NCBI GenBank assembly: GCA_047602655.1
Contig: JASGGT010000001.1
Span: 5,453 to 69,452 of the forward strand
Length of the DNA: 64,000 bases
Origin: Desulfovibrio sp.
Lineage (GTDB): Bacteria; Desulfobacterota; Desulfovibrionia; Desulfovibrionales; Desulfovibrionaceae
Reading direction: 5' to 3'
Within the stretch, counting starts at the first letter, position 1. Each line of letters begins with the position of its first letter. Of the stretch, positions 3,985 to 58,383 are shown in pieces. The position numbers were made by a program, and so were the translations under genes. Under the pieces are notes generated by a model. It ran no database searches and had not been told where the DNA came from. It was given only the letters and a program-made list of their open reading frames with translations.

Positions 3985-5928
3985 TCAATCCAAACCGCGC
4001 AGCTTTTCGCGCAGCAGAGCGGCCTTGGCGGGGCCGATGCCGGGAATCTTGCACAAATCCTCCACCCCTGCGGCCCGCATGGCCTCAACACTGCCAAAGT
4101 TGTCCCACAACAAACGCGCCGTGGCAGGGCCGATGCCCGGCAGGCGCATCAGCTCGCCAGACAGGGCCGCACCTTGTCGTGCGCGGCGGTGTCGGCCAAT
4201 GGCAAAACGGTGGGTATTGTCGCGCACGTTCTGCAAAAACAGCAGTTCCGGGCCGCCTTCACGCAGGGGCAGCGGATTGGCGCGGTTAGGCACAAAAATT
4301 CTGTCAGCCACATTGCCCGCACGGCGGTCGGCGTGGCCCTCCTCATCCCTGGCCTTGGCAATGGCCGCGAGGGCGAAAAGGTCTTCCTGCCCGGCCTCGC
4401 GCAGGGCGCGCTGCACGGAGCCGAGCTGCCCGCGCCCACCGTCTATGAGCAGCAAATCCGGCCACGGCGGGCCGCTCTCAATTCTACGCGCCACCCAGGC
4501 GTACAGGGTTGCGTAGTCATCTCCGCTGTCGGGCATGGCATAGGCCCGGTACTGCGAGCGTTCGGGCTTGCCGTCCTCAAAAACAACCATGCCCACGCGT
4601 GTCTGTTGCCCGCCGGTGTGGGACACGTCCACGCACTCAATACGCATGGGCGGGCCGGGCAGGTGCAGGGCCTTTGCCAGCCGCTCCAGAATATTCTGAT
4701 CCGGTTTCTGCTCCTGACGGCGGGCTTCCTCACGCGCGTTGGACTGCGCAAGGTCTATGAGCTGATTGTCGCCAGCATTTTGCGGCGGCACAATGCGCAC
4801 GGCCCCACCCCGGCGGTCCGCCAGGGTCTGTTCCAGGGCATCGCGGGTGGACGCGCCGCCTTCTGCCGTCTGCCCGCTTTCGACTGCCAGTCCGTTTTCC
4901 GCTGCCGCGCTGCCCCCCTCCGCCTCCCGCTCTTCTTCCCGACCTTCTTTCTGATCTTCTTCCTGGCCTTCTTCCAGATCGGCGGGAATCCAGGGCAGGA
5001 GCACGCGCGGGGGCGGCGTGGCCTGGCTGTAATACTGCCCCATGAACGACCAGAGCAGTTCCGGCGCGTCTTCAAAGGTCAGGCCCGACCAGTAAAAGGC
5101 CCGCCCGTCCGTCACCGCCCCGTTGCGCACAAAGATAAGCCCCAGCGCCAGCCCCTTGTCCGCAGAGAACAGGCCCACCACGTCCATGTCGCCGCCGCCG
5201 GGCAGTACGGCGGCCTGCCGTTCAACCGTGCTTTCCACAGCGCGTATCTGGTCGCGCAGGCTGGCGGCCCTTTCAAATTCCAGTTCTTCGGAGGCCTGTT
5301 CCATGGCGGCGCGCAGCCCGCCAAGCAGCTCGGCGGAGCGGCCCTGGAGCAGATCCGTCACCTTGCGCACATTCTCGTTGTATTCCTGCGATGTCACCAT
5401 GCCCATGCACGGCGCGGGGCATTGCCCCATAAAGTGATACAGGCAGGGCCGCACACGGTTTTTCATGGCCTTGTCGGTGCAGCGCCGCAGGGCAAAGGCA
5501 CGGTGGATGAGCTTCCACGTTTCGCGTGCCGCCAGAGCGGACGTGAACGGGCCAAAATAACGCGCGCCGTCCCGCCGCGCCTGCCGCACGATTTCCAGCC
5601 GGGGAAAGGGATGCTTGGGATTGATGCGAAAAAGCACGTACTGCTTGTCGTCGCGCAGCACGATATTGTAGTGCGGCCTGTGCTTTTTGATGCAACTGGC
5701 TTCCAGCAGCAGGGCCTCTTTTTCCGTGGTGGTGGTCAGGTACTCGATGCTCTCGGCATGCGAAAGCATGGCCCGCGTTTTGGCGGGCAGCCCTTCTGGC
5801 CGAAAGTAGGAGAGCACCCGGCGGCGCAGCACGCGCGCCTTGCCCACATAGATGATGCGGCCCTTGGCGTCCTTGTACAGGTATACGCCGGGAGTAAGGG
5901 GAATGCTGGATGATTCGGGCTTCTGCAT
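3985..5928 (-). CDS. uvrC: excinuclease ABC subunit C
   Basis: GIY-YIG N-terminus (GVYLYKDAKGRIIYVGKARVLRRRVLSYF), a UVR domain, and a C-terminal (HhH)2 (LMRLPGIGPATARLL...IPGIGPAKAALL). Start moved to the internal ATG at 5928 (MQKPESS). The track ORF extends to 6012. Confidence 0.9.
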   Translation of the reverse strand: MQKPESSSIPLTPGVYLYKDAKGRIIYVGKARVLRRRVLSYFRPEGLPAKTRAMLSHAESIEYLTTTTEKEALLLEASCIKKHRPHYNIVLRDDKQYVLFRINPKHPFPRLEIVRQARRDGARYFGPFTSALAARETWKLIHRAFALRRCTDKAMKNRVRPCLYHFMGQCPAPCMGMVTSQEYNENVRKVTDLLQGRSAELLGGLRAAMEQASEELEFERAASLRDQIRAVESTVERQAAVLPGGGDMDVVGLFSADKGLALGLIFVRNGAVTDGRAFYWSGLTFEDAPELLWSFMGQYYSQATPPPRVLLPWIPADLEEGQEEDQKEGREEEREAEGGSAAAENGLAVESGQTAEGGASTRDALEQTLADRRGGAVRIVPPQNAGDNQLIDLAQSNAREEARRQEQKPDQNILERLAKALHLPGPPMRIECVDVSHTGGQQTRVGMVVFEDGKPERSQYRAYAMPDSGDDYATLYAWVARRIESGPPWPDLLLIDGGRGQLGSVQRALREAGQEDLFALAAIAKARDEEGHADRRAGNVADRIFVPNRANPLPLREGGPELLFLQNVRDNTHRFAIGRHRRARQGAALSGELMRLPGIGPATARLLWDNFGSVEAMRAAGVEDLCKIPGIGPAKAALLREKLRGLD

Positions 5929-6063
5929 GACAAAAGAATGGGGAGTTAAAGAAAAAAAGCAAGTGCGGGGGAAAAAGCCAAAAGGCTTCCATCCCCCGCG
6001 CTCCTCCTGCAAAACTGGCGGGCGCCTGCTCGCGCAGCCGCCAGAGCAATTTTAAGGATTGCC

Positions 6064-7275
6064 CTAAATCAGACCCTTCTGCATCATTTCGGCCACCTGG
6101 GCCACGTCCTTGTCGCCACGGCCAGAGAGGTTCACCAGCAAAATGCCGTCCACAGGCATGGCGGGGGCCATCTTCATGGCGTGGGCCAGCGCGTGGGAAG
6201 ACTCCAGCGCCGGAATGATGCCTTCGTGCCGCGAAAGGGAGAAAAAGGCGTCCAGAGCTTCCCTGTCGGTCACGCTGACGTATTCGGCGCGGCCCATATC
6301 CTTGAGCAGGGCGTGTTCCGGCCCCACAGAGGGATAATCAAGCCCGGCGGAAATGGAGTACACTTCGCCCGCCTCGCCCGCAGGGTCCTTGATCATGTAG
6401 GAATTGAAGCCGTGCATGACACCGGGCTCGCCCAGGCAGAGGGATGCGGCATGCTCGCCGTAGCTGTTGCCGCGTCCGCCGGGTTCCACGCCCAAAAGGC
6501 GCACGTCCGCATCGTCAAGAAAGCCCGCAAACAGGCCGATGGCGTTGGAGCCGCCGCCCACGCAGCCAAGGCAGGCATCGGGCAGACGGCCGGTTTCGGC
6601 CAGCATCTGGGCGCGGGCCTCGCGCCCCACCACTGACTGGAAAACGAGCACCATATATGGATACGGATGCGGCCCCACTGCAGAACCGAGCACATAGAAC
6701 ATTTCCGGATCTTCAATCCACTTGCCCAGGGCTTCGTCCACGGCTTCCTTGAGGGTGCGCTGGCCGCTCTTGGCAGCCACCACGCGCGAACCGAGCATCT
6801 CCATGCGGATAACATTGAGGTGCTGGCGCTCCATATCCACTTCACCCATGCAGATGGTGCATTCCAGCCCCATCAGGGCCGCTGTGGCCGCAGTGGCCAC
6901 ACCATGCTGGCCTGCGCCGGTTTCTGCGATAACGCGCTTCTTGCCCATGCGCTTTGCCAGCAGGCACTGTCCAAGGGTATTGTTGATCTTGTGCGCGCCA
7001 AGATGGTTGAGATCTTCGCGCTTGAGCCATATCTGCGCGCCGCCAAGGTGACGGCTCAGATTGGCGCAGTGGAACACCGGATTGGGCCGCCCCGTGTAGT
7101 GGGAGCAAAGATAATCCAGCTCTTTCTGAAAGGACGGATCCGCCTCGGCGGCCTTCATGGCTTCCGCCACTTCGTCCAGACGGGCCTTGAGAGGCTCGGG
7201 TACGAACTGCCCGCCGTAGGCCCCAAAAAAGCCCTTGCTGTCAGGAATGCCGTAAGGGGCGGAATGCTGGCTCAT
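6064..7275 (-). CDS. trpB: tryptophan synthase beta chain (stand-alone, no trpA nearby)
   Basis: GFFGAYGGQFVPE, LNHLGAHKINN and GGGSNAIG motifs. GAAGGAG RBS. Confidence 0.9.
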   Translation of the reverse strand: MSQHSAPYGIPDSKGFFGAYGGQFVPEPLKARLDEVAEAMKAAEADPSFQKELDYLCSHYTGRPNPVFHCANLSRHLGGAQIWLKREDLNHLGAHKINNTLGQCLLAKRMGKKRVIAETGAGQHGVATAATAALMGLECTICMGEVDMERQHLNVIRMEMLGSRVVAAKSGQRTLKEAVDEALGKWIEDPEMFYVLGSAVGPHPYPYMVLVFQSVVGREARAQMLAETGRLPDACLGCVGGGSNAIGLFAGFLDDADVRLLGVEPGGRGNSYGEHAASLCLGEPGVMHGFNSYMIKDPAGEAGEVYSISAGLDYPSVGPEHALLKDMGRAEYVSVTDREALDAFFSLSRHEGIIPALESSHALAHAMKMAPAMPVDGILLVNLSGRGDKDVAQVAEMMQKGLI

Positions 7276-12591: not shown

Positions 12592-13392
12592 ATGCACGAT
12601 AAAAAAGATGGAAGCAAAGGCAACATCATTATGGTCACGGATGGCGCGTCCATCCCTGACCCGCGTGAATGGCGCCTGATAAACGCATGGTCTATCGCCC
12701 TGGTGGGCGCGTTCGGCACCCTGTTTACCCTCTGCACGCTCTGGCCCGAGCCATACCTGCGCATTCTGCTTTACCTGCCGGACGGCATACTGATCACATT
12801 CAAGATCACCCTGCTTTCCATCTGCTGTGCGGTGCCGCTTGGCTTGCTCACAGGTCTTGGTCGCATTTCAGACAACCGCTTCATAAATCTTATCGCCTCC
12901 ACCTATGTGGAAGTGATACGCGGCATACCACTGCTGGTGCAGATATTTTACATCTACTACGCCCTCTCGCGCTTTGTGCAGGTGAGCGGCGTCACCTCCG
13001 CCGTGGTCGCCATCAGCTTCTGCTACGGCGCGTACATGGGCGAAGTGTTCCGCGCGGGCATCACGGCCATCAACAAGGGCCAGACCGAAGCGGCGCGCTC
13101 CCTGGGCTTCAACCGCTACCAGACCATGCGCCTTGTGGTGCTGCCCCAGGCCATGCGCACCATCCTGCCCCCCGTTGGCAACGAATGCATCGCCATGCTC
13201 AAGGATACCTCGCTTGTATCCATCATGGCCGTGCCGGACATAATGCAACGCGCGCGCAGCTTTGTGGGCACCACCTATCTGTATTTTGAAACCTACACCA
13301 TGGTGGCAATCATTTACCTCATTATCACCCTTGTGCTCTCCAAGGCTGTGAGCATCATGGAATCCAGGCTGAACTACTATGACGGAAAATAG
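12592..13392 (+). CDS. amino acid ABC transporter permease (His/Glu/Gln/Arg/opine type)
   Basis: Carries the EAA-loop region ([36 protein letters not shown]). Confidence 0.85.
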
Positions 13393-14125
13393 CGCCGCCC
13401 CCATTATCTCCATCAATCACGTCTGGAAGTACTTTGGCTCGCTGCCTGCCTTGCAGGATGTCAGCCTGGATATTGCTCCCGGTGAACGCGTGGTTATTAT
13501 CGGCCCTTCCGGCTCCGGCAAGTCCACCCTGCTGCGCTCCATCAACAGGCTGGAACAGATCGACCAGGGCAGCATCATTGTTCAGGGTCAGGATATCCAG
13601 AGCGACGAAAAAAACATCAATGAGATGCGCCAGAATCTGGGCATGGTTTTCCAGCAGTTCAATCTCTTTCCGCACAAGACGGTACTGGAAAACCTCACCC
13701 TTGCCCCGCGCCACCTGCGCAAGCTCTCGCGCGAGGAGGCTGACGCCCGCGCCCTGACCCTGCTCAAAAAGGTCGGCATCAGCGACAAGGCCAATGTGTA
13801 CCCTGCCATGCTCTCGGGCGGGCAGCAGCAGCGTGTTGCCATTGCGCGCGCCCTGGCCATGCAGCCCTCCATCATGCTCTTTGACGAACCCACCTCAGCC
13901 CTTGACCCCGAAATGGTGGGCGAAGTGCTGGACGTTATGGTGAAGCTGGCGGAAGAAGGCATGACAATGGTTTGCGTAACCCACGAAATGGGCTTTGCGC
14001 GCACGGTTGCCGACCGCCTCATTTTTATGGATCAGGGCCAGATTGTGGAAATGGGCAAACCTGAAATGCTTTTCACTGCCCCCCGCCATCCGCGCCTGCG
14101 GCAGTTCCTGAATCAGATTCTGTAG
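13379..14125 (+). CDS. amino acid ABC transporter ATP-binding protein
   Basis: Walker [10 protein letters not shown], signature [15 protein letters not shown], Walker [13 protein letters not shown]. Overlaps the permease stop by 14 nt. Confidence 0.9.
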
Positions 14126-14264
14126 TACGCTTCTGGCAGGAGGGGCCTTTGTCTGCAAGGGTCCCTTCTGTCATGCCTCTCCTCCTTCTTTCCCGCCATC
14201 CCTTATGTGTTGCGTCAGCGGCTTCGCCCCCCACGGCGACACCAACAAGGGAGTGAACAAAGCC

Positions 14265-15413
14265 ATGAACGCCCCCCATACACATAGCCCCACCGTGGCC
14301 GTTGCCGTGAGCGGCGGCGTCGACAGCCTGTGCGCAGTGGTCATGCTGCACAATGCGGGCTTTCGCGTTTTGGCCCTGCACGGTCTTTTTTTGCCAGACG
14401 GCCCAGCTGACGCCCCCGCAGGGCTGGCGGAAGCCTGCGCCGCGCTTGGGGTTCCCCTGCATGTGGCTGACCTGCGCGAGGCTTTTCAGCGTGAAGTGCT
14501 GACCCCTTTTGCCTCAGCCTATGCCCAGGGACGCACACCCAACCCCTGCGCCTACTGCAACCGGGCCATCAAGTTTGGCGTATTGCTCGACACCGCCCTT
14601 GCTCTCGGTGCGGACAAGCTTGCCACCGGGCATTACGCCCGCCTTGTTCCCGGCCCGGCTGCACCAATAACTGCGGACGAGGGTGAAATCTCCGAATCCT
14701 ATCCCCTGCTTGCCGCCGCTACGGACACAGCCAAGGATCAGAGCTATTTTCTCAGCCTTGTGCCGCGCAAACGGCTGAGTCGCGCCCTGTTTCCGCTTTA
14801 TGGGCAGAACAAGGAGCAAACCCGCGCCATTGTGGCGGCTGCCGGGTTGGCCGTTCCCCTGCCGTCCGAAAGTCAGGACATCTGTTTTGCCCCGCCCCTT
14901 GCGCAGGCGGGCATGTCCGCGGCCGAGGCCTACCGGCCTTTTCTGGAGCGCCACTGGCAGGCGGCCGGCACGGTCGCCCCGGGGCCGGGGCCTGTGCTGC
15001 TGCTCGACGCACAGGGCAACAAGCGTGAGATTGGCCGTCACAGGGGGCTGTGGCGCTATACGGAAGGTCAGCGCAAGGGGCTTGGCATTGCCCATACGGA
15101 GCCGCTTTTTGTGCTGACCAAGGACAGCGCAACCAACACCCTTGTGGTTGGGCCGCGTGCCTTGCTTGGCATACGCACCTGCCTGACAGGGCCAGCAAAT
15201 ATCGCATTGCCGCCGCACCTTTGGCCTGACAGGTTGCTTGTGAGGCTGCGGCATCGGCAGCGCCCCTGCCCCGCGAGTGTGCATGTTGATGATGCGTGCC
15301 TGCGTATCGTGCTGGATGAGCCGCAGTTTCCCACGGCGCCCGGTCAAGTGGCAGCAGTTTATGATGCGGAAGGCCGCGTGCTGGCTGCCGGTGTTGTGGA
15401 AGAGATGGTGTAA
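14265..15413 (+). CDS. mnmA: tRNA 2-thiouridine(34) synthase
   Basis: PP-loop VAVAVSGGVDS, NPCAYCNRAIKF, and DQSYFL. Start set at ATG 14265 after AAGGGAG. Confidence 0.85.
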   Translation: MNAPHTHSPTVAVAVSGGVDSLCAVVMLHNAGFRVLALHGLFLPDGPADAPAGLAEACAALGVPLHVADLREAFQREVLTPFASAYAQGRTPNPCAYCNRAIKFGVLLDTALALGADKLATGHYARLVPGPAAPITADEGEISESYPLLAAATDTAKDQSYFLSLVPRKRLSRALFPLYGQNKEQTRAIVAAAGLAVPLPSESQDICFAPPLAQAGMSAAEAYRPFLERHWQAAGTVAPGPGPVLLLDAQGNKREIGRHRGLWRYTEGQRKGLGIAHTEPLFVLTKDSATNTLVVGPRALLGIRTCLTGPANIALPPHLWPDRLLVRLRHRQRPCPASVHVDDACLRIVLDEPQFPTAPGQVAAVYDAEGRVLAAGVVEEMV

Positions 15414-15419
15414 TTTTTT

Positions 15420-16376
15420 GGGGAGAGTTTCCCTCACGGAGGGTGGGGGTGAGCCTGTCAGGCCCATTTACGCAAAACCGACTTTTTTGGCCTGACTGCG
15501 TCAAAGTCCAGCTTTTAATGCTCACGTACACGAGTACGCTGCGCTCAAAATCCCGGCGCTTCCTTTTCAGGCCGCAAAAAGCGTATTTTGCAAATTCGCC
15601 CAACACCAACCATCGCCTCCGCTCCGCTCCGGCGAGTATAAGGAAGGCGACCCGACGACCCGCTTCTGATGACGGGCCGGGGTGCAAGTTACGCGAAATT
15701 TTTCCGTCAGATCTCGCTGCACTAACCTTGATATTTCCATGAATAATTAGGCTGATGCAACCAATGTTGCTTTTGGTGCAAAGGCACCCACTCGAATTTA
15801 TGCTATCTCGCAACCCCAACCTTACCCTATTACGAGCGACAGAAAACCTATGGGGACATTAACTGGCATCTTCAAGGGACGCTGCGAACCAATTCACCAG
15901 TGATCCTTGGCTGAAGCGAAATCCCATTCAAGGCGAAAGCGGGCTCTGGCATTTACGCGGCGCGGAGGGAGATCGCCTGAACGAGTGCCGCGAGTGAAGG
16001 AAGCTCCCGCAGCTACAGCCGCGTTGCCCTCGCCGTTTTACGGAAGCTGAAAACTCTCTTAGGGGGGATGCAAGGGGGGCCGGAGTGTTGACACCGTCAA
16101 CACGACCGGAAATCAGGAGCAGGTCGCGGCTTTGCCGCGCCGCCAGCGACTGATATCCGTGCCTTTCCGACCGGCGGGCATACCGCCGATGGCGGCCCAA
16201 ACCCGCCGGAGAGGCGCAACCTCGCGCCCACAGGGCCAGAACACGAAAAAATTCGCCACCCCACAATAAAAACGGGCCTCAGCATCAGCCAAGACCCGTA
16301 GTAAAAGTTTTTGCGGGGATGGGGGTTTGGGGAGGGGGGCTTTTTAAAAAAGCCCCCCTTCCCCCAACGGCATTCC
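15420..16376 (+). repeat. non-coding mosaic repeat, copy A (inverted partner at 39600-40244)
   Basis: 15420-15700 matches the reverse complement of about 39975-40244. 15905-16110 matches the reverse complement of about 39760-39960, with weaker similarity out to about 16300/39640. Copy A carries an extra segment of about 200 bp (15700-15905). Confidence 0.8.
16329..16365. terminator. long G/C hairpin with an A/T centre (likely bidirectional terminator)
   Basis: GGGGAGGGGGGCTTTTT/AAAAAGCCCCCCTTCCCC, 13 nt beyond the gcvPB stop. Confidence 0.5.
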
Positions 16377-16377
16377 A

Positions 16378-17826
16378 CTACCCCATATCTTCGGTCAGCA
16401 CCATCTGACGTGCGGCGGCGGTTTCATCCAGACGACGCACGGGCAGGTTGGTGGGCAGTTCCTGAAGGGACTGAGGATCAGCCTTGCCCGTGAGGATGAT
16501 CTCCTGAAGGGCTTCAACGTAACCGTCCAGGGTTTCCTTGCTTTCCGTTTCCGTGGGTTCGGCCATGAGGCACTCGTGCACGATAAGCGGGAAGTAGATG
16601 GTGGGCGCGTGGATGCCGCGTTGCAAAAGAGCTTTGGCGATATCCAGAGCGCGCAGGCCCTGCGGTGCGGACGCCACGAATTCGTGCGCGCAGAAACGAT
16701 CCTTGAAAGGAATTTCCAGCACGTTCTCGAGCTTCTTCTTGAGGTAGTTGGCGTTGAGCACCGCGTATTCAGAGGCGCGGGCGAGGCCTTCGCCGCCGAG
16801 GCGCAGCATGTAGGCCAGAGCTTTGATGACAACGCCAAAGCTGCCATAGAAGGGGCCGATGGGGCCGATGGTCTGCGGCAGGTTGTAATCGAGGAAGAAA
16901 CGCCCGTCAGGATGCTTTGCCACGCGCGGTGCGGGTATAAAGGGCAACAGCCGGTCGGTGACGCCCACGGGGCCAGCGCCGGGGCCGCCGCCGCCGTGCG
17001 GGGTGGCCAGTGTTTTGTGGACGTTGAGGTGCACCACGTCAAAGCCAACGTCGCCCATGCGCATTTTGCCCATGATGGCGTTCATGTTGGCGCCGTCGTA
17101 GTACAGCAGAGCGTCAACCTTGCGCAGCTCGGCAACGATGCGGGGCAGGTGCACTTCCATGAGGCCGAGGGTGTTGGGGCAGGTCATCATGAGGCCCGCC
17201 ACATCTTCGCCGTGTTCGGCAATGGCCGCCACGATGGCTTCAGGATCCACCATGCCGTCGCGCGATTCGATGTTGATGGCGTCAAATCCGGCAAGAGCGG
17301 CGGAGGCAGGGTTGGTGCCGTGGGCCGCATCGGGAATGAGCATTTTTTTACGGTTGCGCCCCTTGGCCTTGTGGTAGGCGGCAATGAGCTTGACGCCGGT
17401 GAACTCGCCGTTGGCCCCGGCCATGGGCTGGAATGTGAAGGCCTTCATGCCCGTGAGTTCGCAGAGCAGATTTTCGGCTTCATGCAGGCATTGCAGCGCG
17501 CCCTGAGCGCAGTCGGCCCCGCCGTCAAGCTGGGCCATCATGGGGTGCAGGTGGGTAAAGCCCGGCAGCGCCGCCACGTATTCCATGAACTTGGGGTTGT
17601 ACTTCATGGTGCAGGAGCCAAGGGGGTAGAAATTGGCGTCCACACTGTAGTTGAGCTGCGAAAGCTGGGTGAAGTGGCGCACCACGTCCAGTTCCGAGCA
17701 TTCGGGCAGACGGGGAGCTTTTTTGCGCAGCAGGTCTGCGGGCAACATGGCCTCAGCCTTGGGGGCATCGCTGTTCAGGCAGTAGGCGGTGCGCCCAGAA
17801 ACGGATTTGGCGAAAATGGTTTTCAC
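16378..17826 (-). CDS. gcvPB: glycine dehydrogenase (decarboxylating) subunit 2
   Basis: 482 aa with a PLP-dependent GcvP C-terminal half. GTG start at 17826 overlaps the gcvPA stop (GTGA). The track ORF starts further upstream. Confidence 0.9.
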   Translation of the reverse strand: MKTIFAKSVSGRTAYCLNSDAPKAEAMLPADLLRKKAPRLPECSELDVVRHFTQLSQLNYSVDANFYPLGSCTMKYNPKFMEYVAALPGFTHLHPMMAQLDGGADCAQGALQCLHEAENLLCELTGMKAFTFQPMAGANGEFTGVKLIAAYHKAKGRNRKKMLIPDAAHGTNPASAALAGFDAINIESRDGMVDPEAIVAAIAEHGEDVAGLMMTCPNTLGLMEVHLPRIVAELRKVDALLYYDGANMNAIMGKMRMGDVGFDVVHLNVHKTLATPHGGGGPGAGPVGVTDRLLPFIPAPRVAKHPDGRFFLDYNLPQTIGPIGPFYGSFGVVIKALAYMLRLGGEGLARASEYAVLNANYLKKKLENVLEIPFKDRFCAHEFVASAPQGLRALDIAKALLQRGIHAPTIYFPLIVHECLMAEPTETESKETLDGYVEALQEIILTGKADPQSLQELPTNLPVRRLDETAAARQMVLTEDMG

Positions 17827-52492: not shown

Positions 52493-52628
52493 GGCCTGTT
52501 GACGCATACTATTATTCAGGGCCCGGCAGAAAGGCTTTTTATTCCTGCTGCATGCGGCACGTGCGCGGCATCGGTAAAAAGCCTTTCTCCTTGCCGGAAC
52601 CGCCGGTCATGGCCGAACACCTGCCCCG
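52490..52628 (+). mobile_element. MITE-like element, copy 3 (degenerate)
   Basis: Starts with TAGGGCCTGTTGACGC, and its TAG is the argC stop. Shares CAGAAAGGCTTTTTATTCC...AAAAAGCCTTTCTCCTTGCC with copies 1 and 2. The right end is decayed. Confidence 0.55.
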
Positions 52629-52687
52629 GAGAATGCCGCCAGAGTTTTGCCCGCCGGTCACACGCGGGCCGCAAAAAAGGAATGCCC

Positions 52688-53779
52688 ATGCAACTGGAAA
52701 CCGCCTTTCAGAAACCGCAACTGTGCCACAGCCTTCTTGATCGCCTCAACCGCGCCCTTGATGGTCGCACAATGCGCTTCATGGAGGTGTGCGGCACCCA
52801 TACAGTTGCCATCTTCCAGAGCGGCCTGCGCTCGCTCCTGCCCAAGTCGGTAACGCACCTTTCCGGTCCCGGCTGCCCCGTCTGCGTCACGCACGATGCG
52901 GAAGTAGCGGCCTTTCTTGAGCTTGCGGGCCGAGACCGCGTCATCATAGCCACCTTTGGCGACCTTTTGCGCGTGCCCGGCCCCGGCGGCCTCAGCCTTA
53001 AACACGCCCAGGCTCAAGGCGCGCGGGTTGAGATTGTCTATTCCCCGCTGGACGCCCTGACCCTTGCGACGGCCAACCCCGGCGATACGGTGGTCTTTCT
53101 GGGCATCGGCTTTGAAACCACCGCCCCCACCGTGGCAGCCACACTGCTCACAGCACAGCAGCGCGGGTTGAACAACTTCTGCGTGCTCTCCCTGCACAAG
53201 CTTGTGCCCCCCGCCCTGCGCATCCTGCTTGAAGACAGCCAGTGCGGCGTGGAAGCCTTTTTGCTGCCGGGGCACGTTTCCACCATTCTTGGGCTGGAAC
53301 CCTACGCCTTTCTGGCGCGTGATTTTCATGTGCCCGGCATCGTGGGCGGCTTCCAGCCCGCCGACATTCTGCTGGCCCTCTGCCTCATGGCCGAACAGAT
53401 GCGCGATGACAAGCCCGATGTGGTCAATGCCTACCCCCGCGCCGTGGACGACACGGGCAACCCCCGCGCCCGCGCCCTGCTGGAACAGTTTTTCCAACCG
53501 GCGGACGCCCTGTGGCGCGGCATAGGCCGCATACCCCAGAGCGGCCTGACCCTGCGCCCGGAATATGAGAGCATGGACGCCATGAAGCGCCTTGACCTCA
53601 CCCTGCCGGACGTTCCCCCCCTGCCCGGCTGTCGCTGCGGCGATGTGCTCAAGGGGCGCATTACCCCGCCGGACTGCCCGCTTTTCGGCAAGCGCTGCAC
53701 CCCCGCCAATCCTGTTGGCCCCTGTATGGTTTCCACCGAGGGCAGCTGCGCGGCCTACTTTAAATATTCGGAGCGATAA
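52688..53779 (+). CDS. hypD: hydrogenase maturation protein HypD
   Basis: FMEVCGTHT, GPGCPVCV and GFETTAP motifs. Start at ATG 52688 after AAGGA, giving 363 aa. The track ORF begins at 52499 inside the MITE. Confidence 0.9.
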   Translation: MQLETAFQKPQLCHSLLDRLNRALDGRTMRFMEVCGTHTVAIFQSGLRSLLPKSVTHLSGPGCPVCVTHDAEVAAFLELAGRDRVIIATFGDLLRVPGPGGLSLKHAQAQGARVEIVYSPLDALTLATANPGDTVVFLGIGFETTAPTVAATLLTAQQRGLNNFCVLSLHKLVPPALRILLEDSQCGVEAFLLPGHVSTILGLEPYAFLARDFHVPGIVGGFQPADILLALCLMAEQMRDDKPDVVNAYPRAVDDTGNPRARALLEQFFQPADALWRGIGRIPQSGLTLRPEYESMDAMKRLDLTLPDVPPLPGCRCGDVLKGRITPPDCPLFGKRCTPANPVGPCMVSTEGSCAAYFKYSER

Positions 53780-54783
53780 TGGACGATTGCCTTCTTCTTG
53801 ATGCTGGCAGCGGCGGCAGAGCCTCGCAGCGCCTTATTGCCCAGTGTTTCATGCGTCATTTTGCCAATCCCCTGCTGGAGCGCATGGACGATGCGGCTCT
53901 TTTGACCGATATTTCTGGCCCGCTGGCCATGAGCACCGATTCCTACACGGTGACGCCCCTGTTTTTCGCAGGCGGCAGCATTGGCAGTCTGGCAGTGCAT
54001 GGTACCGTCAACGATGTCGCCATGCTGGGGGCACGGCCCCGCTACCTGAGCTGCGGATTCATCCTTGAAGAAGGCCTGCCCCTCGAAACCCTCGAGCGCG
54101 TCGTGGCCGACATGGGCGCAGCAGCCCGCGAGGCAGGGGTGAGCATTGTGACGGGCGACACCAAGGTTGTGCCGCGCGGTGCTTGCGACAAGATTTTCAT
54201 CAATACCACTGGCATCGGGCAGGTATTTGCCTCGCCCTCGCCCTCGGGCCACAATGCCCGGCCCGGCGATGTGGTGCTGGTCAGCGGAGCCATGGGCGAC
54301 CACGGCCTCACTGTCATGGGCAGTCGCGAAGGCTTGTCCTTCCTTACGGACGTGGCCTCGGACTCCGCCCCGCTGAACCACATGATTGAAGACATCATCA
54401 ACACGGTGGGCGAGGTGCACGTGCTGCGCGACCCCACGCGCGGCGGGCTTGCCACAACGCTCAATGAAATCGCCGAGCAGTCGCAGGTGTCCATCCTGCT
54501 TGAGGAGGCCAGCGTTCCCGTTCACGAGGCCGTGCGCAACGGCTGTTCCTTCCTCGGCATGGATCCGCTGTACCTTGCTAACGAGGGCAAGTGCATTTGT
54601 ATTGTGCCCGAAAGCAGCGCCGAAGCAGCCCTTGAGGCCATGCGCCGCTCGCCCTACGGCAAGGAAGCGGCCCGCATCGGCACAGTAACGGAAGGCAAGG
54701 CGCAGGTGGCGCTGCAAACCCGCATAGGGGGCCGCCGCCTGCTGGGTATGCTGGAGGGCGCGCAGTTGCCCCGCATCTGTTAG
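53779..54783 (+). CDS. hypE: hydrogenase maturation carbamoyl dehydratase HypE
   Basis: AIR-synthase-like fold (DDAALL...TTDSYTV, GDTKVV) and the conserved C-terminal PRIC. TAATG overlap with hypD. Confidence 0.9.
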   Translation: MDDCLLLDAGSGGRASQRLIAQCFMRHFANPLLERMDDAALLTDISGPLAMSTDSYTVTPLFFAGGSIGSLAVHGTVNDVAMLGARPRYLSCGFILEEGLPLETLERVVADMGAAAREAGVSIVTGDTKVVPRGACDKIFINTTGIGQVFASPSPSGHNARPGDVVLVSGAMGDHGLTVMGSREGLSFLTDVASDSAPLNHMIEDIINTVGEVHVLRDPTRGGLATTLNEIAEQSQVSILLEEASVPVHEAVRNGCSFLGMDPLYLANEGKCICIVPESSAEAALEAMRRSPYGKEAARIGTVTEGKAQVALQTRIGGRRLLGMLEGAQLPRIC

Positions 54784-54927: not shown

Positions 54928-55050
54928 GAATAACTTGCCCCGATAATTTTCCAAAGCAATCCGAAAGCAGAGATAGTTACGGAGAGTCCCCTGAAACTGT
55001 TGTCTTTGTTTCAACCGAATGCAGGAGTCTCCTGCCTGAAAGGAAATAGT

Positions 55051-55242
55051 ATGGATTCCACCTATCAGCGCGCCATGAACGCCAATGTGACCCCGCAGAT
55101 TTTTTCCACCATGGTGAGCAATGCGCAAAAGGTGGCCGAAGCCTTTGCCGGTTCCGGCTCCACCACTGTGGATGCAGAGAGCATTGCCGCCGTGTTCAGC
55201 CGCATGGTGGTTGCCCAGATCGAAATGTTTGAAAAAAAATAG
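55051..55242 (+). CDS. small protein of unknown function (63 aa)
   Basis: AAGGA RBS 7 nt upstream and GC-rich third positions. MDSTYQRAMNANVTPQIFSTMVSNAQKVAEAF... No recognisable motif. Confidence 0.45.
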   Translation: MDSTYQRAMNANVTPQIFSTMVSNAQKVAEAFAGSGSTTVDAESIAAVFSRMVVAQIEMFEKK

Positions 55243-55296: not shown

Positions 55297-56085
55297 CTAA
55301 TTCACCCAGGGCGACATGTCCGCCCCCTTGCGCAGGGCCTCGCGCACTTCAGACCAATGCCTTTCCATATCTTCCAGCCGGGCCAGCAGTACATCCTCCG
55401 CCGGGGTGCGCGCCAGCACTGCGGCCACGGCCCCCTGCTCGAACACCAGCCGCCTGTCTGCCGCCAAGGCCAGCACAGGATCGTGCGTTGCCATGACAAT
55501 AATCTTGTCCGAGGCCAGCAGCAGATCAAGGGCCTTGCGCTTGTCCACTCCGGCATTTTCAATTTCGTCAATGAGCAGCACGGGCGACCAGCTGAGCAGG
55601 GCTGTATCCGCAATCATCAGGGCGCGCGACTGCCCGCCGGAAAGCTGGGTCAACTGCGTATACCCGTCAAAGGATTCACCAGCCAGTTCGTTGGCGGCGG
55701 CAAAAACCCTGGCCGCAGCGGTTTCGGGGTCTGCCACCTCGCGGCTCAGGGCGTGGGTGCGCAAAAAATCCATCACGCCCATGTCCAGCACAAAATTCAT
55801 GTTCTGGGTCAGCTGGGCCACCAACCTCCCCTGTAGATCAAAGCGCGTGTCTTCATCGGGTTCCGCGCCGTTGAGCAGCACGGTGCGGCCCGTTGGCGTA
55901 TCGCCTGCGGCCAGTGACTCAATATCGCTCAAAAAGCGGCTCTTGCCTGCACCTGTTGGCCCCAGCAGGGCCGTAATTTCACCGGGGCGGAAGTGAATAT
56001 CCATTTTTTCCGGCTGGCCTGTCTTGGCGCGCCCAGGGGTCAGGCTCAGGCTGCGCAGGGCCAGTTCCATGTTTTCACGCTCCAT
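55297..56085 (-). CDS. ABC-type ATPase with no cognate permease
   Basis: Walker A GPTGAGKS, signature LSGGQSRAL, Walker B VLLIDEIE, H-loop MATHD. ATG at 56085 lies 6 nt after GGAG and overlaps the upstream GTPase gene end by 11 nt. Confidence 0.8.
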   Translation of the reverse strand: MERENMELALRSLSLTPGRAKTGQPEKMDIHFRPGEITALLGPTGAGKSRFLSDIESLAAGDTPTGRTVLLNGAEPDEDTRFDLQGRLVAQLTQNMNFVLDMGVMDFLRTHALSREVADPETAAARVFAAANELAGESFDGYTQLTQLSGGQSRALMIADTALLSWSPVLLIDEIENAGVDKRKALDLLLASDKIIVMATHDPVLALAADRRLVFEQGAVAAVLARTPAEDVLLARLEDMERHWSEVREALRKGADMSPWVN

Positions 56086-56776
56086 GGCCTTCTCCAAATT
56101 CCGCCTTTTTGACGTTGCCCTTCTGGTAGCGCGCGCCGATGCGCATTTCGCTCAGGCAATAGGAGCAGATGGCCGCGGGCATGGCAAAGCGCAGCCGCAT
56201 GTCGGTTACGGAGGCAATGTCCGGGGCAACAGCCATGATGGCGGCAAGCTCCGCGCAGCCCTGCCCGGTCAGGCCGTTCACGTGGCGGATAACGGCCCGC
56301 TGGTTCATCTGCCGGATGCGGTAGCGGTAGACCTCGCGCTCTGCCTGCGACACAAGATCGCCCTTGGTCACGGCCACCACATCGGCCAGCCGCAGCATGG
56401 GGCCGATTTTTTCCGGCGCGTCTATGCCCATGAGGTTGTCGATGACGCACAGGGCCAAGGCCCCGCGCAGATGGGGCGAACAGCGGTTGCACAGGCCTGC
56501 AGTTTCAATAATGCAGATGTCGGCCCCGGTTTCCGCGGCCCAGGCAAAGGCTTCTTCCAGATTGGTGGCAAAGAAATGGTCGGGGCAGAGCCCGCCGGAA
56601 AGCGCGACGGAAACGGGAATATCCGCCGCCGCGTAGAGTTCGTCATCGCGGGTCTGCAGGCAGTCAAACTTGATGACGGCGCAGGTTGCGCCCCGCGCCC
56701 TCAGAGCCGCGCCAGCCCTGACCACAAGCGATGTTTTGCCGCACGCGGGCGGCCCCGCCACGGTTATGAGACGCAT
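56075..56776 (-). CDS. G3E-family (CobW/HypB/UreG-like) P-loop GTPase
   Basis: 233 aa with Walker A GPPACGKTS, ICIIETAG, and G4 motif TKGD. Cys/His-rich motifs GGLCPDH, GLCNRCSPH and the C-terminal CSYC. The start overlaps the upstream gene by 13 nt. Confidence 0.7.
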   Translation of the reverse strand: MRLITVAGPPACGKTSLVVRAGAALRARGATCAVIKFDCLQTRDDELYAAADIPVSVALSGGLCPDHFFATNLEEAFAWAAETGADICIIETAGLCNRCSPHLRGALALCVIDNLMGIDAPEKIGPMLRLADVVAVTKGDLVSQAEREVYRYRIRQMNQRAVIRHVNGLTGQGCAELAAIMAVAPDIASVTDMRLRFAMPAAICSYCLSEMRIGARYQKGNVKKAEFGEGHGA

Positions 56777-57780
56777 GCCGTGCCCGCCTGCAACCGCCGG
56801 AACTTCAAGGCTAGGATATCGCGCAGGCTGTTCACGTCGTTGCTTTCCACAAAATCCCAGCCCACCCATTTGAGCTTTGCCCCTGCGGGCAACTGCGAGG
56901 GGCGCGAACCGTCCACGGGGATGAACCAGGCGGCGCTGTCTATACCGCCAAAGCCATTGGCAAAAAAGTCCAGCACCGGTGCCAGACGCTCTTTTTCTGA
57001 TTTTTTTGCCAGCAGATAGAGGGGGCTTGCGGCTGCGCCGTCCTCGGGCCAGACAATTTCCACATGCTCCGGCAGTTTGGTGCTTTCGGCAAAAAACAGG
57101 GGAATGATAAAGATGCCCCCGGCATCGGGAGCGGCGGTGCCGCAGACCTTTGCCATGCGCGAGGAATGCATGAAGCTTTTGATGTTGGCGGCAAGCCCGG
57201 TAACGCCCGGTTCGCCAAAATCCTTGTACTGGTTGAGCAGCACGGCATCGGCCATGTCGTCGCCATCGCCGCACATGACAATCTGCCCGCGATAGCGTGG
57301 GTTCATGAGGTCTGCCCAGTTTTTCGGGGCTGGCAGACCGTCCAGCTTTTTGTGATCCACCAGAAAAATGTATGGGGTCACGCCGTAGATGGTATAGGCC
57401 CCGGCAGGGTCAATCAGCCCGGCATCGGCATACAGGGGATTCAGCACACGGGGCTGCACACTTTCAAAAAAACCCGTGCTGACAAAACGCCGCACAAATT
57501 CGCCGCGCCAGAAGTCGCCGTAGCCAATGGACGCTATAACGGCTGGCAGTTTGTTTGCGTCCGATTCCATATACAGCGGATCATAAGGATCAACTGAAGT
57601 GCAGCCCATGGGGATATGCGCCGTCAGGGGCGGGTTTGCCGCTGTGGCAATGGCCTCGATGCGCTCCTTGACCACAAGCTTTACCGGGCAGGGGGCATAG
57701 AGCAGCAGGTCTGTTTTGCCTATGACGGGGATGTCGTCCTGTTGCTGCAATGACTGCATGAGATGTTCAAGCCTTTTCAT
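56764..57780 (-). CDS. periplasmic-binding-protein-fold (ABC SBP-like) protein without a signal peptide
   Basis: 338 aa from ATG 57780 (AAGAGG RBS). Body resembles Fe3+/thiamine/polyamine-type SBPs (YGVTPYIFLVDHKKL...NWADLMNPRYRGQIVM...). The longer track ORF adds an AT-rich, non-coding-looking N-terminus. Confidence 0.6.
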   Translation of the reverse strand: MKRLEHLMQSLQQQDDIPVIGKTDLLLYAPCPVKLVVKERIEAIATAANPPLTAHIPMGCTSVDPYDPLYMESDANKLPAVIASIGYGDFWRGEFVRRFVSTGFFESVQPRVLNPLYADAGLIDPAGAYTIYGVTPYIFLVDHKKLDGLPAPKNWADLMNPRYRGQIVMCGDGDDMADAVLLNQYKDFGEPGVTGLAANIKSFMHSSRMAKVCGTAAPDAGGIFIIPLFFAESTKLPEHVEIVWPEDGAAASPLYLLAKKSEKERLAPVLDFFANGFGGIDSAAWFIPVDGSRPSQLPAGAKLKWVGWDFVESNDVNSLRDILALKFRRLQAGTACVS

Positions 57781-57822
57781 GGCGCCTCTTTCCGCAAAAA
57801 GTTTGGGAACCACTCTGGGTAG

Positions 57823-57838
57823 AGCAAGGAGCATGCCG
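57823..57838 (-). promoter_or_regulatory. sigma54 (-24/-12) promoter
   Basis: The minus strand reads CGGCAT-GCTCC-TTGCT, with GG and GC at the correct spacing (consensus TGGCAC-N5-TTGCW). It lies about 45 nt upstream of the ATG at 57780. Confidence 0.55.
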
Positions 57839-57902
57839 GTCATCAAGGATGTACAACACACGGAGATATAACATAATTTACTTTTCATTCACTAGAATCC
57901 GG

Positions 57903-57941
57903 ACAATATTGTATCGCCGCCTTACCGCGATACAATATTGT
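57903..57941. promoter_or_regulatory. palindromic upstream activator-type site (two ACAATATTGT boxes)
   Basis: ACAATATTGTATCGC-N9-GCGATACAATATTGT, a perfect 15-bp inverted repeat centred about 95 bp upstream of the -12 element. Each arm contains the self-palindrome ACAATATTGT. Confidence 0.5.
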
Positions 57942-57984
57942 ACGCATTCAGATAGAGCCTCGATCTGCTGCCAGAGCGTCCCCA

Positions 57985-58383
57985 GGGCTGTCTCTAAATA
58001 AATGATTTTGCGCCAAGGGCAAGAAAAAGGCTTTTTTACGAAAGGAATGTACTTGCTTCAGCCGTTGCTTAAGGCGTTGCGACACAGGCTTAAAGCGTTG
58101 TGACGCAGGAAACTACGCTTGAAGACAGCAGGTGTAACGACACAGTTACATCGTTGCAATCGCTGTCGCCATCCGTACGCCCTGCGGGCAACGGCTGCCG
58201 CGAAGCTACGCCTGAAGACAGCATGCGTAACGACACAGTCCGTTCCATGCAATCGCTGTCGCCATCCGTAAGGCCTTCGGCCAACGGCTGCCGCGAAGAC
58301 AGCAGCGCTGAAGGTACATGACTGGAGTAAAAAATGGCCTTTTGACGCAGCCAGTTGGACAAAGAATTATTTAGAGACAGCCC
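57985..58383. mobile_element. 399-bp non-coding element with 17-bp perfect terminal inverted repeats
   Basis: GGGCTGTCTCTAAATAA (57985-58001) and TTATTTAGAGACAGCCC (58367-58383). The end next to mntH reads TAGGGGCTGT on the minus strand, resembling the TIR start of the 150-bp family. Confidence 0.6.
58121..58309 (+). repeat. about 93-bp tandem repeat, 2 copies, inside the 399-bp element
   Basis: GAAGACAGCAGGTGTAACGACACAG...CAATCGCTGTCGCCATCCGTA...AACGGCTGCCGCGAAG occurs twice (58121-58213 and 58214 to about 58309). Each copy holds a short GC hairpin (GCCC-TGC-GGGC or GGCC-TTC-GGCC). Confidence 0.75.

Follow-up and report, generated by a model that had tools for sequence, protein, structure and literature searches.

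A conserved gene trio of Desulfovibrio encoding a predicted G3E-class GTPase, an ABC ATPase without a membrane partner, and a leaderless periplasmic-binding-protein-fold protein

Organization of the trio

We analyzed a 64,000-nucleotide stretch of DNA from Desulfovibrio sp. (assembly GCA_047602655.1, contig JASGGT010000001.1, positions 5,453 to 69,452 of the forward strand), hereafter called the window, which was 98% identical to Desulfovibrio desulfuricans. The subject of this study is a set of three minus-strand genes at positions 55297-57780, hereafter called the trio. An initial annotation of the window, made from the sequence alone, had described these genes as overlapping by 13 nt and 11 nt, and the coordinates of the open reading frames (ORFs) bore this out. 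The first gene (56764-57780, minus strand) encodes a leaderless protein with the fold of periplasmic substrate-binding proteins (SBPs), which belongs to the SBP_bac_6 family. Its ORF spans 56764-57888, and an ATG at 57780, preceded 6-7 nt upstream by the ribosome-binding site AGAGG, gives a product of 338 aa. The second gene (minus strand) runs from an ATG at 56776 to a stop at 56075, overlaps the SBP gene by 13 nt, and encodes a P-loop GTPase of 233 aa that is assigned below to a separate clade of the G3E class. The third gene (minus strand) starts at an ATG at 56085 after GGAGAAGG, overlaps the GTPase gene by 11 nt, and ends with a stop at 55297; its product is a single-cassette ATP-binding cassette (ABC) ATPase of 262 aa that contains no cysteine and has no membrane partner. 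The trio consists of real genes, because hundreds to thousands of homologues are known, at 55-99% identity. No membrane segment was found in any of the three proteins, the highest 19-residue Kyte-Doolittle mean being below 1.6 in each.

Conservation of the trio in sulfate-reducing bacteria

A scan of one genome per GTDB species yielded 60 loci, all from Thermodesulfobacteriota except two metagenome-assembled genomes labelled Acidobacteriota; ORFs in the related loci were called by a simple greedy method. The order SBP-GTPase-ABC was kept in 56 loci, and the four exceptions were contig ends (56 of 56 informative loci). The overlapping gene junctions were also kept. Median identity to the window proteins was about 79% for the GTPase, 70% for the ABC ATPase, and 57% for the SBP-fold protein, a pattern that would fit a conserved engine whose carrier is more adaptable.

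ORFs lying up to 10 kb from the trio on either side were all clustered, for about 60 loci. No other ORF family occurred in more than 11 loci, no permease was among the conserved families, and the Pfam contexts agreed. The claim that no membrane component lies in or beside the operon was thus upheld, both by the lack of hydrophobic spans and by the lack of a conserved permease within this distance. With its order kept in every informative locus and no other conserved neighbor, the trio was confirmed as a self-contained, permease-less cassette. The initial annotation had also called the neighborhood metal-themed, citing mntH and hypDE. This point did not survive the comparison: hypD/hypE, mntH, and the chemoreceptor neighbors were confined to the D. 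desulfuricans clade, and mntH and hypDE were accordingly rejected as functional evidence and carry no weight. TOBE and FmdE genes were rejected as conserved partners, each being present in 3 of about 60 loci. When the trio was compared with the PADLOC anti-phage defense profiles, the SBP-fold protein and the GTPase had no match and the ABC ATPase had only generic ATPase-domain matches; membership in a defense system was rejected, there being no specific match for the gene set.

In Fundidesulfovibrio magnetotacticus (L066), the trio lay between two gene sets. The upstream set (4144-6792) consisted of a PstS/TupA-like SBP and a pair of permeases that lack a neighboring ATPase, and downstream was a molybdenum/tungsten (Mo/W) island (12645-17029), comprising an ABC ATPase, an SBP_bac_11 protein, a permease, a ModA-like SBP, and a TunR-type regulator (Phage_integrase plus TOBE).

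The GTPase is predicted to form a separate G3E clade

The second protein matched the cobW/HypB/UreG domain PF02492 in Pfam (43.3 bits against a cut-off of 20.7) and carried the motif set of the G3E class, with GPPACGKT at residue 8, IIETAG at residue 89, and TKGD at residue 137. These motifs and the three Cys/His elements listed in the initial annotation (GGLCPDH, GLCNRCSPH, and the C-terminal CSYC) were all present. Structural conclusions here and below are drawn from monomer models built on 12-sequence alignments. The GTPase model (pLDDT 71) had as its top Foldseek matches HypB 4lps (E = 3e-8), UreG 4hi0/5xkt, and 2hf8. In a profile alignment, GGLCPDH (C64-P-D-H67) aligned with the GGCPH nickel motif of Klebsiella pneumoniae UreG. 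Cys/His residues are therefore predicted to lie at the UreG/HypB metal site and to bind metal, and the earlier description of a G3E protein with Cys/His residues where such proteins bind metal agrees with the PF02492 match, the HypB/UreG fold, and this alignment of CPDH on UreG CPH.

Nine GTPase cysteines were invariant (C12, C39, C64, C96, C99, C110, C174, C204, and C207), and so was GGLCPDH, which lies between Walker A and Walker B. Relatives at 35-45% identity retained C64-P-D-(H), E-x-x-G-L-C96-x-R-C99-x-P, and the C-terminal C204-x-x-C207. The tail (198-233, the last 35 residues) was nearly invariant and yet modeled with low confidence, which is typical of a segment that may fold on a partner or on a metal.

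The GTPase scored far under the NCBIfam equivalog cut-offs for hypB (TIGR00073, 35.6 against 121.2 bits), ureG (TIGR00101, 21.7 against 204 bits), and MeaB (TIGR00750, 18.2 against 240 bits); its relative from Methanosarcina acetivorans scored 50.6 bits to hypB (TIGR00073). A Pfam scan found no CobW_C domain, GLCNRC stands in place of GCxCC, and the protein ends at residue 233. A HMMER search with the GTPase profile against 1.84 billion cluster representatives returned 504 at E <= 1e-3, and because only these 504 were matched, the clade stands well apart from HypB, UreG, and CobW, which are very large families. On these scores the GTPase is assigned to a separate G3E clade and is not HypB, UreG, MeaB, or CobW. 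This result bears on whether it belongs to an already characterized orthologous group, and it was placed outside those groups by the hypB, ureG, and MeaB scores.

The known G3E proteins show what is shared and what is distinct. HypB (which works with HypA/SlyD) and UreG (with UreDFE) share the fold and the P-loop, ExxG, and (N/T)KxD motifs with the trio GTPase; the CPH nickel motif of UreG is matched by its Cys-Pro-(Asp)-His, and HypB likewise has a Cys after the Walker B strand. In contrast to both, the trio GTPase has an extra invariant CxRC and a C-terminal CxxC tail, its partners are an ABC ATPase and a periplasmic-binding-protein (PBP)-fold or Fe-S protein instead of HypA or UreE/F/D, and outside one clade it is unlinked to hydrogenase or urease genes. 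The COG0523/CobW/ZNG1 proteins share the G3E class and PF02492 with it, and both are presumed metal delivery proteins; however, the trio GTPase lacks CobW_C and GCxCC and is only 233 aa long. Some COG0523 genes adjoin metal ABC importers.

The SBP-fold protein has no predicted signal peptide

The first protein was assigned to Pfam SBP_bac_6 (PF13343, E = 1.2e-58). Its AlphaFold2 model (pLDDT 86) showed the two-lobe fold of class II periplasmic binding proteins, and more than 1000 Foldseek matches to SBPs were obtained at E <= 0.001. The nearest folds were the ferric-binding proteins FutA/IdiA/FbpA, together with P5PA and AfuA (TM about 0.6, 12-16% identity), and the sequence relation to solved SBPs was marginal (E >= 0.0025). 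The trio protein thus resembles these class II SBPs of ABC importers in fold (TM about 0.6, E about 1e-12) and in its Pfam family, and differs from them in having only 12-16% identity, no signal peptide, and no cognate permease. The iron ligands of FbpA are Tyr/His/Glu; the trio protein has conserved Cys and His residues. In the sulfate-reducer family, C31 (PCPVKL), C60 (MGCT), C170 (MCGDGDDMADA), and H205 (MHSS) were invariant, as was the stretch CGDGDDMADA.

The start of the protein was assigned by comparison. Nearly all homologues were 338-345 aa long with a conserved MKxLxxLMxS N-terminus, and the NCBI annotation of close relatives likewise gives 338 aa. In at least 21 related loci, an in-frame stop preceded the conserved Met without an intervening start codon, and in about nine further loci the start could be extended by eight codons at most. 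In this strain alone, an alternative ORF of 374 aa has a hydrophobic N-terminus (19-residue Kyte-Doolittle mean of 1.90). This signal-peptide-like start was rejected: it is not conserved, it is missing in 89%-identical relatives, and it lies upstream of a conserved sigma-54 element. The SBP-fold protein is therefore predicted to be without a signal peptide across the family, in keeping with the earlier claim that it has none when started at the ATG with the ribosome-binding site.

The ABC ATPase is divergent and has complete motifs

The third protein matched ABC_tran in Pfam (PF00005, E = 1.8e-13) and carried a complete set of motifs, namely Walker A (GPTGAGKS), LSGGQ, Walker B with the catalytic Glu (VLLIDE), and the H-loop (THD). 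It was very divergent, the best PDB match having E = 1e-11, and it reached no NCBIfam family cut-off. SufC in SufBC2D and PhnK/PhnL in C-P lyase are soluble ABC ATPases that drive enzyme complexes and provide a precedent for such a protein. Like the trio ATPase, they are single cassettes with complete motifs, no membrane domain, and soluble partners. Unlike them, the trio ATPase is coupled to a G3E GTPase, and in two database proteins it is fused to one; no homology to SufB/D or to the Phn core subunits was detected in the trio.

The wider family and its architectures

More distant relatives were found in M. acetivorans, Methanolobus, Fusobacterium necrophorum, Treponema pedis, Sporomusa, and other Spirochaetota. 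The same three genes were adjacent in M. acetivorans (L069, AE010299, about 1,519-1,522 kb), F. necrophorum (L071), and Sporomusa (L073). In these three hosts the SBP-fold protein has an N-terminal DUF1858 domain. The ABC protein of M. acetivorans and that of Sporomusa are also extended at the N-terminus, by about 90 aa, whereas that of F. necrophorum is not; the added segment resembles DUF1858 (hhalign probability 67%, E = 5e-5). The occurrence of DUF1858 on the one protein and of a DUF1858-like extension on the other suggests that the two may have a shared docking domain.

A further 80 metagenomic loci, some of them redundant, were retrieved with the pattern [IVL]E[TS]AGLCxRC. Together with five reference loci they made a set of 85, and the GTPase gene stood beside a gene for a cassette-type ABC ATPase in 80. 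The set spans archaea and several phyla of bacteria. The exceptions were the T. pedis locus (L072), three loci with too little contig (L084, L098, and L133), and one in which the tblastn matches were about 2 kb apart (L140). An SBP-like gene was present in 59 of the 85. In addition, two of the 504 cluster representatives, P0285 (509 aa) and P0287 (613 aa), both metagenome-derived, contained cobW and ABC_tran in one polypeptide and are apparently natural fusions of the two proteins.

Four architectures were distinguished. Type A, that of the window and of the sulfate reducers, is SBP(338)-GTPase-ABC. Type B, found in Methanosarcina, Fusobacterium, Sporomusa, and others, is DUF1858-SBP(about 400)-GTPase-ABC, the ABC protein often being extended at its N-terminus. 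Across types A and B, the only putative cleft residues still invariant were P30-C31 and H205. Type C is GTPase-ABC followed by a short SBP-like protein of about 300 aa without the Cys, and stands beside complete importers, each equipped with an ATPase of its own. Its surroundings also included regulators of the Crp/Fnr type, class I methyltransferases, and a fusion of radical SAM with Peripla_BP_2, and at some loci nitrogenase-like genes as well. Type D is ABC-GTPase followed by a cytoplasmic Fe-S protein of 217-236 aa with an N-terminal PF04060 domain (LPGxNCGxCGYxxC) and several more conserved Cys. It was found in 14 loci, mostly archaeal (L080, L081, L086-L088, L090, L097, L106, L110, L112, L115, L118, L124, and L153); comA, cofE, and ribosomal protein genes lay near most of them, giving them an archaeal look.

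Two gene sets recurred beside type C modules. In L126 (901-7389), and as cluster C47 in five loci, a nitrogenase-like set adjoined the module; it comprised a NifH-like protein scoring 352 bits to CfbC, two Oxidored_nitro proteins, and an interleaved Peripla_BP_2/FecCD/ATPase importer. In L135 (3069-4847), L147 (1239-3017), and L085 (1672-3456), a 592-aa fusion of an AmmeMemoRadiSam-like radical SAM domain with a Peripla_BP_2-like domain recurred among Peripla_BP_2 lipoproteins and class I methyltransferases.

Proposed function and alternative explanations

The reading that we favor, and to which we give an even chance, is that the products of the trio form a soluble complex in the cytoplasm and, with the help of two nucleotide switches, handle either a thiophilic metal ion or a small cofactor that contains metal. 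The PBP-fold protein would hold the cargo in its cleft through Cys31 and His205. ATP-driven dimerization of the ABC protein could supply a mechanical stroke that opens or docks this carrier, as nucleotide-binding domains (NBDs) do to permeases. The GTP-loaded GTPase dimer would take the metal at a site in its interface and release it to one or more client proteins on GTP hydrolysis. That the cargo is a metal or cofactor, that there are such clients, and that the three proteins form a physical complex are points that we infer. Having no export signals and no membrane segments, the trio is predicted to be cytoplasmic. The GTPase and the ABC ATPase are, across the loci compared, apparently inseparable in evolution, two database proteins being fusions of them, and the third partner is evidently exchangeable by lineage, being either a PBP-fold protein with a conserved, putative Cys/His cleft or an Fe-S protein. 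Because the proteins are cytoplasmic, the pair is inseparable, and the third partner is exchangeable, a soluble engine of two NTPases acting on a carrier fits better than a transporter. As for the cargo, the Cys/His residues at the HypB/UreG site and the two CxxC motifs point to a thiophilic metal or metal cluster as the probable ligand.

A group of observations weighs against this proposal. In T. pedis (L072), the SBP and GTPase genes were present with no adjacent ABC gene. The conservation of ETAGLCxRC in the metagenomic loci was partly built in, since these loci were selected by a pattern containing it, and P0285 and P0287 could in principle be frameshift artefacts of metagenome gene calls. 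Furthermore, the conserved Cys is missing from the short SBP-like proteins that accompany type C, and the type C module adjoins complete ABC importers of the NMT1 type or the FecCD/Peripla_BP_2 type. A role at the cytoplasmic face of uptake is possible in view of this context. The statement in the initial annotation that the trio is a soluble metal or cofactor delivery machine and not a transporter thus held in part: the absence of a permease and of a leader, the fusions, and the exchange for an Fe-S protein favor it, but the importers beside type C modules keep a link to uptake possible.

Such a link would take its strongest form in a split ABC importer, in which the ABC protein energizes a permease encoded elsewhere and the imported substrate passes, on the inner side of the membrane, to the GTPase and the cytoplasmic SBP-like protein. 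The ABC protein does have all the motifs of a transport NBD, and importer genes, among them those for permeases and exported SBPs, directly adjoin the type C module. Immediately upstream of the trio, L066 has the PstS-like SBP and the two permeases that lack a neighboring ATPase, and L068 has a FecCD importer. However, in about 60 genomes of sulfate reducers no permease was conserved within the cassette or close to it, and the adjacent importers in L079, L126, L108, L121, and L139 have their own ATPase genes. The NBD is also far from the transporter NBD families, as judged from the best PDB match and the NCBIfam cut-offs given above. A classical importer is hard to reconcile with the data because the NBD is fused, in two database proteins, to a GTPase and not to a membrane domain, and because an Fe-S protein replaces the SBP-fold partner in type D; we consider a split importer unlikely. 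A regulatory role was weighed as well, with the cytoplasmic PBP-fold protein sensing a metabolite and the two NTPases switching another process. PBP folds are common as sensor domains, the partners in the wider family carry DUF1858 domains, and sensor kinases or Crp/Fnr regulators were frequent neighbors, but the trio has no output domain, the regulators were not conserved beside the sulfate-reducer type, and the conserved Cys/His set at a known metal-transfer site points elsewhere. A signaling module of this kind is very improbable.

Two other explanations concern the cargo. It could be molybdate, tungstate, or a Mo/W cofactor, the trio then being a handling or selectivity device that feeds molybdo- or tungsto-enzymes or nitrogenase. 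Genomic links of this sort were scattered over several loci: single-domain TOBE (molbindin) genes next to or near the cassette (L001, L003, L015, and L073), a trio lying 2-6 kb from a modCAB-like set, a ModA gene, and the Phage_integrase-TOBE regulator of TunR type (L066), FmdE genes (L003, L019, and L062), nif genes (L003 and L067), and a DmsA-family molybdoenzyme (L079). The short SBP-like partner also matches SBP_bac_11. Yet no more than about 8-10% of loci showed such links, which is modestly above chance, no TOBE gene was present in the 80 metagenomic loci, and no Moco riboswitch was found in the window and 8 related loci. The closest folds are those of Fe3+-binding proteins and not that of ModA, and Cys/His-rich sites with a HypB/UreG-type motif suit thiophilic cations, not oxyanions. 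We consider a Mo/W cargo rather unlikely. Alternatively, the trio might move or load a tetrapyrrole-type or chelated metal cofactor (a corrinoid, haem, or a nickel tetrapyrrole) after its uptake or synthesis, in the manner of MeaB. Type C modules lie amid multiple Peripla_BP_2/FecCD importers, their class I methyltransferases are weakly similar to the corrinoid-protein-associated CpaM, and the radical-SAM-Peripla_BP_2 fusion and the nitrogenase-like genes close to CfbC (352 bits) belong to the same setting; the FecCD importer of L068 is directly upstream of the trio, and the hosts (methanogens, acetogens, sulfate reducers, and Fusobacterium) depend heavily on corrinoids. This context is nevertheless missing from the sulfate-reducer type of the window, the PBP fold is class II (FbpA-like) instead of the class III used for corrinoid and haem binding, no cobalamin riboswitch was found in the window and 8 related loci, and the MeaB score was far under its cut-off. 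A tetrapyrrole cargo is accordingly judged improbable. Each of the two cargo themes occurred in about 10% of loci or fewer; both are weak and neither is decisive.

In a broader form, the proposal of a soluble delivery machine would make the GTPase a hitherto unrecognized fifth branch of the G3E class, forming an obligate pair with a soluble ABC ATPase in a machine that uses GTP and ATP to load or extract a metal or cofactor by way of interchangeable carriers, and that is ancient and widespread in strict anaerobes, among them Methanosarcina, Fusobacterium, Treponema, acetogens, and sulfate reducers. We advance this tentatively, with somewhat less than an even chance of its being right. G3E GTPases are the paradigm of nucleotide-gated metal insertion, serving hydrogenase, urease, B12 enzymes, and zinc enzymes. 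We read the trio as a G3E metallochaperone system in which the clade and the partners are new and a second motor, of the ABC type, is added, and the chance that it is a mechanistically new kind of machine is substantial. The reviews consulted recognize only four G3E families. Neither the SBP-like protein nor the three genes as a set fall under any curated family of NCBIfam, PADLOC, or the Pfam architectures, and the names of homologues in databases are generic ("ABC transporter substrate-binding protein", "GTP-binding protein"). Searches of the full text of open-access papers on Desulfovibrio/CobW/SBP, G3E subfamilies, DUF1858, and Methanosarcina/CobW found no description of the trio.

If the proposal is true, the trio would represent a new mechanistic type in which an ABC power stroke acts on a soluble carrier in place of a permease, and it would point to an unassigned step of metallocenter maturation or metal allocation. 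The hosts are relevant to methane production, to sulfide production and corrosion, to the human gut (Desulfovibrio), and to oral disease (Fusobacterium and Treponema). Since homologues occur in genetically tractable hosts (M. acetivorans and Desulfovibrio species), the proposal is directly testable.

Regulatory elements upstream of the trio

Upstream of the SBP gene, a sigma-54 type -24/-12 promoter element, CGGCATGCTCCTTGC, was found by regular expression at 57838-57824 on the minus strand (57824..57838). It starts 58 nt upstream of the SBP ATG, has GG-N10-GC spacing, and shows two mismatches to the consensus TGGCAC-N5-TTGC; a consensus search allowing one mismatch found no sigma-54 site in the window. 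At this threshold of at most one mismatch, elements were present in 29 of 59 non-redundant sulfate-reducer upstream regions, compared with 19 of 1160 control segments. A candidate operator without strand assignment (57895..57949) contains two palindromes of 10-12 bp, (G/T)ACAATATTGTA, at 57902-57913 and 57931-57942. The motif had three matches in the window against 0.3 expected, and the two palindromes sit in a 23-nt inverted repeat whose arms are 91% complementary and 9 nt apart. ACA-W4-TGT units were present in 24 of the 59 upstream regions compared with 1.1% of control segments and were usually paired at a spacing of 18-29 bp. In the D. desulfuricans clade the paired units precede the promoter, and in most other genera they are located between the promoter and the ATG. 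The trio thus appears to be expressed from the predicted sigma-54 promoter, with a second regulator acting at putative paired ACA-N4-TGT sites.

An RNA-hairpin reading of the paired sites was rejected. Protein-binding DNA sites are favored over an RNA hairpin because both direct and inverted repeats of the units were observed. Among known regulators, NifA (TGT-N10-ACA), NrdR, ModE, Fur/Zur/NikR, and Crp/HcpR were rejected, none of their motifs fitting the variable 18-29 bp spacing of two ACA-N4-TGT units. No sigma-54 activator was found in the window. An adjacent activator was rejected for the family as well, since such genes, variable in position, turned up no farther than 10 kb away in about 9 of 55 loci, as many as chance would give in these genomes. 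Neither the window nor 8 related loci had a riboswitch or other known RNA upstream of the trio, and a paper on the sigma-54 regulome of D. vulgaris does not mention the trio.

Neighboring features in the window

Directly downstream of the cassette lies a small convergent ORF (55000-55242, plus strand) of 80 aa, possibly shorter if started at an internal Met, which had no Pfam match. Beyond it, hypE occupies 53779-54783, its start overlapping the end of the hypD ORF. The latter is listed as 52499-53779 (plus strand) with a TTG start, which adds about 60 aa at the N-terminus; an internal Met (MQLETAF...) is probably where the conserved HypD sequence starts. On the other side of the trio, an insert resembling a miniature inverted-repeat transposable element (57985-58383) separates the mntH stop codon from the control region of the trio. 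It is bounded by perfect 17-nt terminal inverted repeats, GGGCTGTCTCTAAATAA, at 57985-58001 and 58367-58383, the sole two copies in the window, and it encloses two tandem 93-nt repeats (58109-58201 and 58202-58294) that are 85% identical.

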